From positions 896,001-960,000 of the forward strand of contig CAWDSK010000006.1 of NCBI GenBank assembly GCA_963804995.1: 64,000 nucleotides of DNA, in the 5' to 3' direction. Below, piece after piece: positions 17,571-61,171 of the stretch. The DNA is from an uncultured Acidobacteriota bacterium (GTDB taxonomy: Bacteria > Acidobacteriota > Terriglobia > UBA7540). A program made the translations under genes and the position numbers. Every line of letters starts with the position of its first letter. Position 1 is the first letter of the stretch. The notes under the pieces are model-generated. The model searched no databases and was not told the DNA's origin. It was given only the letters and a program-made list of their open reading frames with translations.

Positions 17571-17582
17571 GCGGTAGCACTT

Positions 17583-17605
17583 GTAGCGCCGACCTTCAGG
17601 TCGGC
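17583..17605. repeat. GTAG-type REP palindrome
   Basis: GTAGC-GCCGACCT-TC-AGGTCGGC. Confidence 0.65.
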
Positions 17606-17674
17606 ATGTGCTTCGGGATCGTGGATTTGCTGACTGAGTAAGCGCGCGTGAATACTGCCGAACATATTGTAGCG

Positions 17675-19587
17675 GTTGCGGTAGGGATACCGGTTACCCG
17701 GTACCCCCCGCACGGATCCGTACGTGCGCTGGTTAGCGCATACGGCTCTTATCTCGGATGTGTGGCGGCGAACCGTTGGGATGGCCAAGGATGCACAACG
17801 TGCGGAGCAGGCAACCAGCAGGCCGCAAGCTTCCCCAGTCGGTCCCAGTTGAGGCGGTGGCGTTGACTGCGTTGACGCAGTTGTGTTCGCCACAGTCGGG
17901 TCAACCGTTCCCGAAAGATTCGCAGGCGGTCGAGGTTTCCCGGTACCGCGTGATAGTTGAAGTAGCCTTGCACGACCGACCGGAGCCATTTACCCGTATC
18001 CGCGATGGGATCGTGCCGACGCTGCCGGAGTTGTTGCTTGAGTTCCTGCAACTTCCCCCGCAGGCGCTTGCTGATCGTCTTCCGCTTCACGGTAAATTGC
18101 CCCCTCCGGTTCTTCCCGCTGATATGCGTGAAGCCCAGAAAGTCGAACGTCTCCGGCTTACCTTCTCCTCTCCGTTTCCGGTAAAGTTCGGCAAACGGCC
18201 CGAACTCGATCCGGCGCGTTTTGTCAGGATGCAGTTCCAATCCAAACTTCCCCACCCGCTCCCGGAAATCCTCCAGAAAGCGGTCGGCTTCCGTCTGCGA
18301 TTGGAATCCAAGGACCGTATCGTCGGCATACCGCACCACGACCACGTCTCCCCGGGCGTGCTTCTTGCGCCACGCCTGCACCCACAGGTCAAAGACGTAG
18401 TGCAGATAGATATTCGCCAGCAGGGGCGAGACCACCGCCCCTTGTGGCGTACCCATCTCCGTCTCCGACCATTCGCCTTCCTCCCTCACCCCGGCTTTCA
18501 GCCATTTCTGGATGAGCCGGAGAATCCGGGGGTCGGCGACGCGATGCTGCACGAACTTGAGCATCCATTCGTGGGATATCGAATCGAAAAATCCACGAAT
18601 GTCCGCGTCAAGAACGTAGTTCACGTGCTTCACCGTGAGCGCGTACGAGAGCGCGTCCAGCGCTTGATGCTGGCTGCATCCCGGTCGAAAGCCATACGAG
18701 AAGCCCAGAAAGTCTTCCTCGTAAATCGCCTTGAGGATGGTGACCACGGCCTGTTGGACGATCTTGTCCTCCAGTGCCGCAACCCCCAACGGACGTTGCC
18801 GCCCGTCGCCTTTCGGGATATACGCCCTTCGCGAGGGCTTCGCTCGGAATGCTCCACGGTGGACCCGGCTGTGCAGATCGACGAGTCGACCTTCCAGCCC
18901 GCTTTCATACTCCTGCCACGTCATGCCGTCTACTCCCGGTGCAGCTTTTCGCTTCAAGGCGTAAAAGCTTTCCCGCAGCAGATCGACCGTTAAGTGGTGG
19001 AGCAAGGCCGTGAACTTCATCTCCCTGTGTTCCTTCGCGGCTTTCCGCACACCCGCGAGTCCCTGGGACACGCGTGCCCCGCTCTGTGTCGGGTGCGTGT
19101 TAGGCCAACGGGTGTTCTCCTTGATCAGCGGCCTTCCCTCCTCATTCTCCGCCAACGGCTTCCCGTCTTTGTTCAAATGATTCATCGGTACTGTTCCGCT
19201 GTCCGACTCCTCGAAAGCGTGCAGGCGGGCTGTACGGCCATCGCCTTTTCCCGCCGTCCGGCCACGATCTACGGCGGCCGGCGCCTCCGAGGTCTCCCGG
19301 TTCTCGTGCAGAAAGTGTCTAGGCGTGTCTGGGGTCTACGACTACGCAGGACTGTGCCGGAACTCGCGTTGGCGTCCCGGCCTCATGTTGCCTTCCGTTT
19401 AGTCTGAAAACGTCGGCGTCCTGATTGGACATTTTCGAAGCTCAATACCCAGCCCACCTATTCCCCTGTTTACGCTTCACCGTGCGCCTCACGACGCCCA
19501 GCGCAAAACTCGGGGCCGAGTGGATCGCTGCTCCTTCCTCGTGAGAAATTTTCATTCTCTGCTTTCTGCCGGTTTATCCCGGCGCAC
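17675..19587 (-). mobile_element. Complete group II intron (endonuclease-less, class E-like), 1913 nt
   Basis: 5' end GTGCG at 19587; domain V GAGCCGTATGCGCTAACCAGCGCACGTACGGATC; domain VI GGGGGTACCGGGTAACCGGTATCCCTACC; 3' end ...GCAAC at 17675; removing it restores an intact REP. Confidence 0.9.
17749..19185 (-). CDS. ltrA: Group II intron reverse transcriptase/maturase
   Basis: APGVDG, RPLG, SYGFRP, GTPQG, RYADD, FDFLGF, domain X (GYFNYH); no HNH tail. Start uncertain. Confidence 0.95.
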   Translation of the reverse strand: MNHLNKDGKPLAENEEGRPLIKENTRWPNTHPTQSGARVSQGLAGVRKAAKEHREMKFTALLHHLTVDLLRESFYALKRKAAPGVDGMTWQEYESGLEGRLVDLHSRVHRGAFRAKPSRRAYIPKGDGRQRPLGVAALEDKIVQQAVVTILKAIYEEDFLGFSYGFRPGCSQHQALDALSYALTVKHVNYVLDADIRGFFDSISHEWMLKFVQHRVADPRILRLIQKWLKAGVREEGEWSETEMGTPQGAVVSPLLANIYLHYVFDLWVQAWRKKHARGDVVVVRYADDTVLGFQSQTEADRFLEDFRERVGKFGLELHPDKTRRIEFGPFAELYRKRRGEGKPETFDFLGFTHISGKNRRGQFTVKRKTISKRLRGKLQELKQQLRQRRHDPIADTGKWLRSVVQGYFNYHAVPGNLDRLRIFRERLTRLWRTQLRQRSQRHRLNWDRLGKLAACWLPAPHVVHPWPSQRFAATHPR

Positions 19588-19721
19588 CAGACCTCCGCCG
19601 TTGAGGTCTGCGTCTTTTCTTGCGAAATGCCGTAACCCTCAACGGGAGGAATCGGCATTCACAATCGGATGCGTGAATCAGAGTAAGAACCGCAGACCCC
19701 AAAGACGGGGGTCTGCGCTAC
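19588..19721. repeat. Remainder of the REP doublet (REPIN-like) interrupted by the intron; its first 6 bp (GTAGCG) lie at 17669-17674
   Basis: GTAGCG|CAGACCTCCGCCGTTGAGGTCTGCG...CGCAGACCCCAAAGACGGGGGTCTGCGCTAC. Confidence 0.85.
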
Positions 19722-60779: not shown

Positions 60780-61171
60780 AAGCGTAGCGCGGTCCCCCGG
60801 TTTTGGGGTCCGCGGCTCTTCGTTTGGTAAACTGCAAATCACAAATCGGGCCGTCCGCGCCACACCACGATACGTTCGCTCACACGTCACAGGAAGAGCC
60901 GCAGACCTCAACGACGGAGGTCTGCGCTACGATGTTTGCTCCCTCGGTATAGTTAGCATGAAGCGTAGCGCGGTCCCCCGGTTTTGGGGTCCGCGGCTCT
61001 TCGTTTGGTAAACTGCAAATCACAAATCGGGCCGTCCGCGCCACACCACGATACGTTCGCTCACACGTCACAGGAAGAGCCGCAGACCTCAACGACGGAG
61101 GTCTGCGCTACGATGTTTGCTCCCTCGGTATAGTTAGCATGAAGCGTAGCGCGGTCCCCCGGTTTTGGGGT
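60780..61171. repeat. Tandem array of a 181-bp unit, each carrying a GTAG-REP doublet (2 full copies + partial)
   Basis: Units start at 60780, 60961, 61142: GTAGCGCGGTCCCCCGGTTTTGGGGTCCGCG...CGCAGACCTCAACGACGGAGGTCTGCGCTAC. Confidence 0.9.

Follow-up and report, generated by a model that had tools for sequence, protein, structure and literature searches.

A class E group II intron that appears to home into one arm of RAYT-associated REP palindromes

How does a group II intron come to lie inside a REP palindrome, and is the palindrome its programmed target? One locus in the window (the whole 64,000-nt stretch of DNA analysed here) raises this question. Direct reading confirms that excision of 17675-19587 rejoins a REP. 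A single base, in the loop, sets it apart from the empty REPs that end at 60930 and 61111, and in the rejoined state the hairpin closes over the junction GGTCTG/CGCTAC. The same junction, described in the original prediction as empty at 19710-19721, is indeed unoccupied and forms part of a partner REP in inverted orientation. The features of the locus are as follows.

17675..19587, minus strand: group II intron of 1913 nt, assigned to class E; its genome has 40 matches at 99.7-100% identity, this one included
17749..19185, minus strand: intron-encoded reverse transcriptase/maturase, 478 aa, YADD intact (TIGR04416, 342.5 bits, cut-off 300)
19332..19552, minus strand: domain I (Rfam RF02005, group-II-D1D4-6, 170 bits, cut-off 49)
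19396..19412, minus strand: EBS1 stem-loop; the RF02005 alignment puts UUCAGACUA in the loop and the fold agrees
19401..19406, minus strand: EBS1, CAGACU, predicted from Rfam placement and covariation to pair with exon positions -1 to -6
19427..19431, minus strand: candidate short EBS2, UGUCC, suggested by covariation
19339, minus strand: candidate EBS3 (G), would pair with exon +1 (C); position counted from sequence
17675..17752, minus strand: domains V and VI with a bulged branch adenosine (fold, z -4.8)
19588..19612, minus strand: 5' exon, consisting of the occupied REP's hairpin body; its last six bases are IBS1, GGTCTG (from the rejoined flanks)
17669..17674, minus strand: start of the 3' exon, CGCTAC: two final stem bases followed by the REP tetranucleotide GTAG in complement
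19691..19721, plus strand: empty inverted partner REP, whose plus-strand junction is in the orientation unused on this contig
60900..60930, plus strand: empty REP of the same family as the occupied one
61081..61111, plus strand: empty REP of the same family as the occupied one

At 17580-17605, 70 nt into the 3' exon, the minus strand carries one more GTAG hairpin, which represents a different REP type.

Anatomy and class of the intron

The group II hallmarks that we tested are all present: a GUGYG 5' end (GTGCG at 19587), domains V and VI (domain V from the fold) and an AY 3' end, which coincides with the end of domain VI at 17675. RF00029 gave no match to the window copy at its gathering score. 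The hairpin at 19396-19412 is present as predicted, and its CAGACU (19406-19401) pairs with exon positions -1 to -6 through five Watson-Crick pairs and one G-U. Loop placement in RF02005 and the covariation described below map this motif to EBS1, as had been proposed. In the candidate EBS2, base 1 would pair with exon position -9 and base 2 with a conserved C at -10.

The intron had also been described as endonuclease-less and unlike class C, and both parts hold. Pfam searched at E values up to 1 found only RVT_1 and a weak GIIM in the intron ORF, with no endonuclease domain, and sequence comparison places the intron in class E. On the S. meliloti GR4 plasmids pRmeGR4b and pSymB, the best match to its protein is a frameshifted ORF on pRmeGR4b at 57% identity (47% for the front piece), and the others are 32-37% identical. 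This ORF is the one class E reference; plasmid and disruption identify it with the class E intron that the available text of PMC5894124 reports as disrupted and locates on pRmeGR4b. The same text locates introns of classes C and D on pSymB. The pRmeGR4b protein groups with the clade of the window intron (SH-aLRT 99). RF02005 is common to the window intron and the class E reference; two other GR4 introns match D1D4-2 and a third D1D4-1/3. Other intron proteins with solved structures match only distantly (118-144 bits). Class C and class F were considered and do not fit the protein identities and the Rfam domain I models, and none of the tested class C marks (a class C protein, a short EBS1 with EBS2 lacking, an insertion point that follows a hairpin) was found. 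A literature search for the class of the Rfam domain I model gave nothing useful; the marks of class E named in the available text of PMC3753933 are alpha' at the tip of the DId3 stem-loop, an extra bulge and a 5-nt loop feature.

Copies and REP sites in the source genome

The genome of the window (G000; its contigs are numbered C1, C2 and so on) contains 40 near-identical intron matches (99.7-100%): 39 are full or nearly full, and the remaining one is truncated where its contig begins. Since four of the matches are at contig ends, the intron breaks the assembly, and the physical copy number may be 38-40. Contigs from four of 20 sequencing runs cover the intron and REP portions; neither the flanking genes nor a joint across the intron is represented in them. 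When we looked for copies in non-REP sequence, the REP body was found in all 38 readable 5' flanks and a CGCTA or CGCCA start in all 39 readable 3' flanks, and every copy with both flanks readable (37/37) sits at one and the same bond of the palindrome. The ORF is intact in all 37 ungapped copies, and copies differ from the majority at a mean of 2.2 positions, none of them in EBS1, which points to a recent burst of copying.

Five extra 5'-end matches in the same genome (69-90% identity) are fragments of related introns with non-REP flanks, and ten further intron-type reverse transcriptase matches have candidate 5' junctions outside this REP. Other multicopy intron families with their own conserved junctions, not in this REP, were seen at C1:97964, C1:289876, C3:1126646 and C9:154739, and more of the same kind at C6:296931, C6:294975, C1:26515, C5:1086970, C5:1126120 and C4:161704.

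Cataloguing sites that fit the REP family pattern, with the introns removed, gave 264 sites, so that the proposed count of occupied against empty sites stands at 37 filled of 264. The family has the REP marks that we tested (tetranucleotide plus stem-loop, high copy number, extragenic location) and occurs in two forms, with 90 GTAG and 37 CTGG perfect CGCAGACC hairpins. Since both forms are used (GTAG 23/210, CTGG 14/54), the idea of a GTAG-REP landing pad stands for GTAG but has to be widened to CTGG. The pad is as dispersed and abundant as had been proposed, but only one arm of it is used, and mostly in one replication orientation. Several further hairpin families of GTAG and CTGG type in G000 are not used by the intron.

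The filled sites look intergenic: stop-to-stop frames hold three of them, two ahead of a likely start and the third in a frame leading into a RAYT gene. Among 14 Y1_Tnp matches in G000, two are closely flanked by target REPs, and both pass the RAYT model NF047646 (cut-off 80 bits):

G000:C5:58401-58922: RAYT gene, 111.9 bits, flanked by target REPs
G000:C6:722276-722986: RAYT gene, 115.9 bits, flanked by target REPs

At each of these two genes one flanking REP is occupied by the intron. Further RAYT-like genes with related REP variants lie at C2:304770-305309 (which also passes NF047646), C2:467514 and C3:777593.

That two copies adjoin RAYT genes, and that four matches at contig ends blur the copy number, would suit a passive origin, in which one ancient REP insertion was multiplied through gene conversion, through REP movement driven by RAYT, or through errors of assembly. 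We consider this extremely improbable. The flanks are differing REP variants (GTAG and CTGG, 11- and 12-nt loops), which argues that the intron entered REPs separately, and the copies carry 20 variants, 9 of them common to subsets. Insertion also splits the GTAG or CTGG tetranucleotide from the REP hairpin, and both elements matter for RAYT recognition according to the available text of PMC8266576. Finally, passive multiplication leaves the strand bias and the independent genomes described below unexplained.

Guides and targets of related introns

Homologous loci were gathered from genomes of the species, from relatives and from metagenomes (the best 80 from each of two collection scans); G002, G005, G006 and G043 are same-genus genomes, and L numbers denote intron loci. 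With one tandem junction dropped and nine loci lacking a parsed EBS excluded, the covariation set comprised 131 distinct 5' junctions among the matches listed, with 69 guide types. Over these 69 guide types EBS1 pairs with exon positions -1 to -6 at 93%, compared to 46% for shuffles (maximum 53%; kinship among the homologues makes shuffle tests overstate covariation) and 34-44% for slid EBS1 controls. At registers -9 and -10 none of 1000 shuffles reaches the pairing of the short EBS2, and 43 of the 46 scored types have an EBS3 that pairs with +1, again among the matches listed. It is this covariation that supports programming of the target site by the guide.

At least 17 of the 131 junctions lie in the target REP family, at least 13 of these outside G000 (in G002, G005, G006, G043 and the Angelobacter record L012), and the REP-family junctions of relatives among the matches listed are all at the same bond as in G000. 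EBS1 at this bond reads CAGACU in G000, G002 and L012 and CAGACC in G043 and G006. Its third form, CGGACU, is found where the arm ends in CCG, in G005 and in a G006 copy that lacks the ORF. The remaining junctions, at least 114, lie outside this REP family; by rough patterns, a single recurrent site accounts for about 45 of them and a purine-rich repeat for 11, and 58 are unclassified. Judged from these junctions, the lineage is one that retargets readily. REP-inserted proteins all fall into one well-supported group of 15 rows that includes non-REP members, with 3 changes required on the tree. That they form a single clade is rejected (p-AU 0.005); as the label used in this test left out L172 and L208 in spite of their shared arm motif, the rejection does not demonstrate several origins.

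The recurrent site is an imperfect palindrome (about 45 of 131 junctions among the matches listed; L015-L088 and metagenome loci), entered from both directions by differing guide sets. Sister introns at the purine-rich TGAAAA repeat are L013, L014, L021 and L028, along with 5' remnants in G000 at C2:652257 and C1:206552. Nine relatives (L012, L022, L100, L118, L119, L130, L144, L208 and L256) start two bases early, with GAAAGCG or GTAAGCG in place of GTGCG, as judged by EBS1 pairing. ORF-less derivatives of about 650 nt were seen as well (L118 in G006, L144 in G005, L014 and L073); two of them lie at the same REP bond and would need protein in trans.

Site choice, replication and a probable route of homing

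GGTCTG/C heptamers number 1471 in G000, and the 1167 outside REP hairpins are all empty, including 16 that also have IBS2 and CGC, so chance does not account for the placement of the copies in REPs. Likewise, no hairpin-free site is used in G000 even though a matrix of positions -16 to +6 scores 32 uncatalogued sites, many of them degenerate REPs, at or above the weakest occupied site. Together with a perfect stem over -6 to +2 at 34 of the 37 occupied sites, this could suggest class C-like targeting guided by structure, in which the protein recognises the folded REP hairpin and pairing merely sets the register. This explanation seems unlikely to us: the share of perfect stems is the same among empty sites (209/227), hairpin energy does not differ between filled and empty sites within the best-matching class of G000 (p = 0.17), and the insertion point lies inside the stem, which hides IBS1. 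Moreover, the intron itself is assigned to class E, and its close relatives L172 and L208 (EBS1 CAGACC) are found at GGTCTG without a 5' arm. Full-length copies in G005 filled 5 of 11 stem-mismatched REPs versus 1 of 41 closed stems (p = 0.001, or 0.004 if two copies sharing a 5' flank are counted once), and the sites of five of the six show an EBS1 mismatch at -4. Site use in G005 hints that a closed hairpin hinders insertion; the preference for mismatched stems is absent in G000.

Arms matching EBS1 are preferred within the catalogue, the ratio of T to C at -2 being 33/4 where sites are occupied and 123/104 where they are empty (p = 4e-5), a preference that is confounded with REP stem strength. 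The IBS2 pairing score does not separate occupied from empty sites within the best-matching class of G000. REPs with 9-nt loops are unused (0/34), and so is the reverse arm (the second arm, on the opposite strand of each palindrome), where none of 134 perfect IBS1 plus IBS3 sites is filled. A C at -10 is present at 36 of 37 filled sites versus only 2 of these 134.

Occupancy also varies with strand. The junction lies on the leading-sequence strand, i.e. the lagging-strand template, at 31/32 filled and 81/198 empty sites (p = 4e-10, with contig-level calls made after the copies had been seen and with C1 and C9, which hold 5 of the 37 occupied sites, left out). Third-position skew and KOPS-like octamers served to assign the leading strand of each contig, with C2 split at dnaA; copies on C2 change strand at this gene. 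Calls made site by site from local skew gave a weaker bias (22/37 versus 94/227, p = 0.049; 25/37 versus 98/227, p = 0.007), local GC skew being too weak for such calls. The 15 copies on contig C6 all share one strand, which holds 18 of 59 empty sites (p = 6e-7). Of the GGTCTG sites whose loop has 11 or 12 nt, 27 of 49 are filled on the leading-sequence (usable) strand and 1 of 65 on the other; GGTCCG sites on the usable strand are filled in 3 of 32 cases and reverse-arm sites in 0 of 67. Orientation relative to the upstream gene showed no clear bias (21 sense and 13 antisense for occupied sites, 111 and 113 for empty ones). The single copy opposing the replication bias (C3:231098-233010) stands at the end of a tandem REP array.

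From the copies, the fixed junction, the REP/RAYT context, the guide-target covariation and the strand bias, all observed in the sequence, we infer that an active or recently active class E intron very probably spreads by endonuclease-independent retrohoming into the 3' arm of RAYT-associated REPs. By analogy with known introns, the excised intron RNA and its protein would reverse-splice into the single-stranded lagging-strand template at the replication fork, where EBS1 would pair with -1 to -6, EBS3 with +1 and the short EBS2 with positions -9 to -12, in the asymmetric loop of the REP. Additional bases (A at -14/-15, and +2 to +5) are probably read by the protein, and EBS2 and the protein contacts may choose one arm by reading the asymmetric loop and the 3' exon. 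As EBS1 nearly copies the REP's own 5' arm, it must displace this arm or act before the hairpin closes. The nascent lagging strand would then prime reverse transcription. RmInt1 and RmInt2 follow this pathway according to the available text of PMC5894124 and PMC4615759, and the selective site use is in line with ordinary fork-coupled retrohoming as in RmInt1.

A broader and rather doubtful possibility is a three-tier conflict, in which the intron parasitises the REP/RAYT replicator, EBS1 mimics the REP 5' arm and insertions destroy RAYT substrates, 27 of the 49 accessible sites being filled. Little-used REP variants (GGTCCG arms on the usable strand, 9-nt loops) would then be escape forms, and the EBS1 changes in sister genomes counter-adaptation. 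If this were true, REP diversification would be driven partly by intron pressure.

Class E introns (the disrupted S.me.I4 on pRmeGR4b, and Cl.be.I2; PMC5894124, PMC3753933) similarly lack an endonuclease and have EBS1 and EBS2, EBS2 being dispensable for splicing (PMC3753933), whereas the window intron has about 40 copies, all those with readable flanks being in a REP family; no REP target for class E introns was found in the available texts. Class E is moderately lagging-biased in PMC8919778, where the phrase 'inserted into rep' refers to replication forks. The class D introns RmInt1 and RmInt2 of Sinorhizobium meliloti also lack an endonuclease, home by EBS/IBS pairing into a multicopy repeat and show lagging-template bias, and RmInt2 shares a two-base linker and a relaxed EBS2 (PMC5894124, PMC4615759). 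Their targets, however, are insertion sequences (ISRm2011-2, ISRm17 inverted repeats) and their copies number 7-10, while the target here is a non-coding palindrome of roughly 30 nt with 264 sites and one arm in use. Class C introns at terminators and attC (PMC4424553, PMC7923331) resemble the window intron in dispersed intergenic hairpins, high copy number and strand bias; unlike them, it has a six-base EBS1 and an EBS2, enters inside the stem and not after the hairpin, and encodes a protein 33-37% identical to class C and D proteins.

REPs themselves are known targets of ISPpu9, ISPpu10, ISPa11 and ISPsy8, with 100% REP association in the available text of PMC1525189, but these are DNA transposases and not RNA-guided retroelements; a P. 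putida group II intron in the table of that paper is REP-associated in only 2 of 9 cases. The target family resembles GTAG REP/RAYT systems (REPtrons) in its dispersal, in the tetranucleotide directly before a perfect stem-loop and in flanking a RAYT gene (PMC3733652, PMC8266576), and differs in including a CTGG form; neither CTGG nor the word 'intron' occurs in the available text of PMC3733652. PMC4424553, in the text available, names three specificities (homing sites, terminators and attC). No REP-homing group II intron was described in the literature searched, which included PMC2936281, 10.64898/2026.09.22.753630, PMC8934634, PMC2873474 and PMC3552965; Toro 2002, Simon 2008 and intron database entries could mention such a target. 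The homing mechanism is known, and the REP target class appears undescribed in the literature searched.

REPs would thereby join the target classes of bacterial group II introns. One genome offers a natural selection experiment, with 264 variant targets scored by arm, strand, loop length and guide match, and two questions become testable: the role of EBS2 in class E, and the effect of a hairpin in the target on reverse splicing, be it favourable or not. The intron is also an example of an endonuclease-less element reaching about 40 copies, compared to 28 cited as high in the available text of PMC4615759 and over 100 in some cyanobacteria in that of PMC8919778. Finally, paired intron copies occur in adjacent REPs 69-264 nt apart (C6:2168574-2172663 and C7:1-3886 in G000), and L057 (2098-5922) holds a head-to-tail pair of intron copies.
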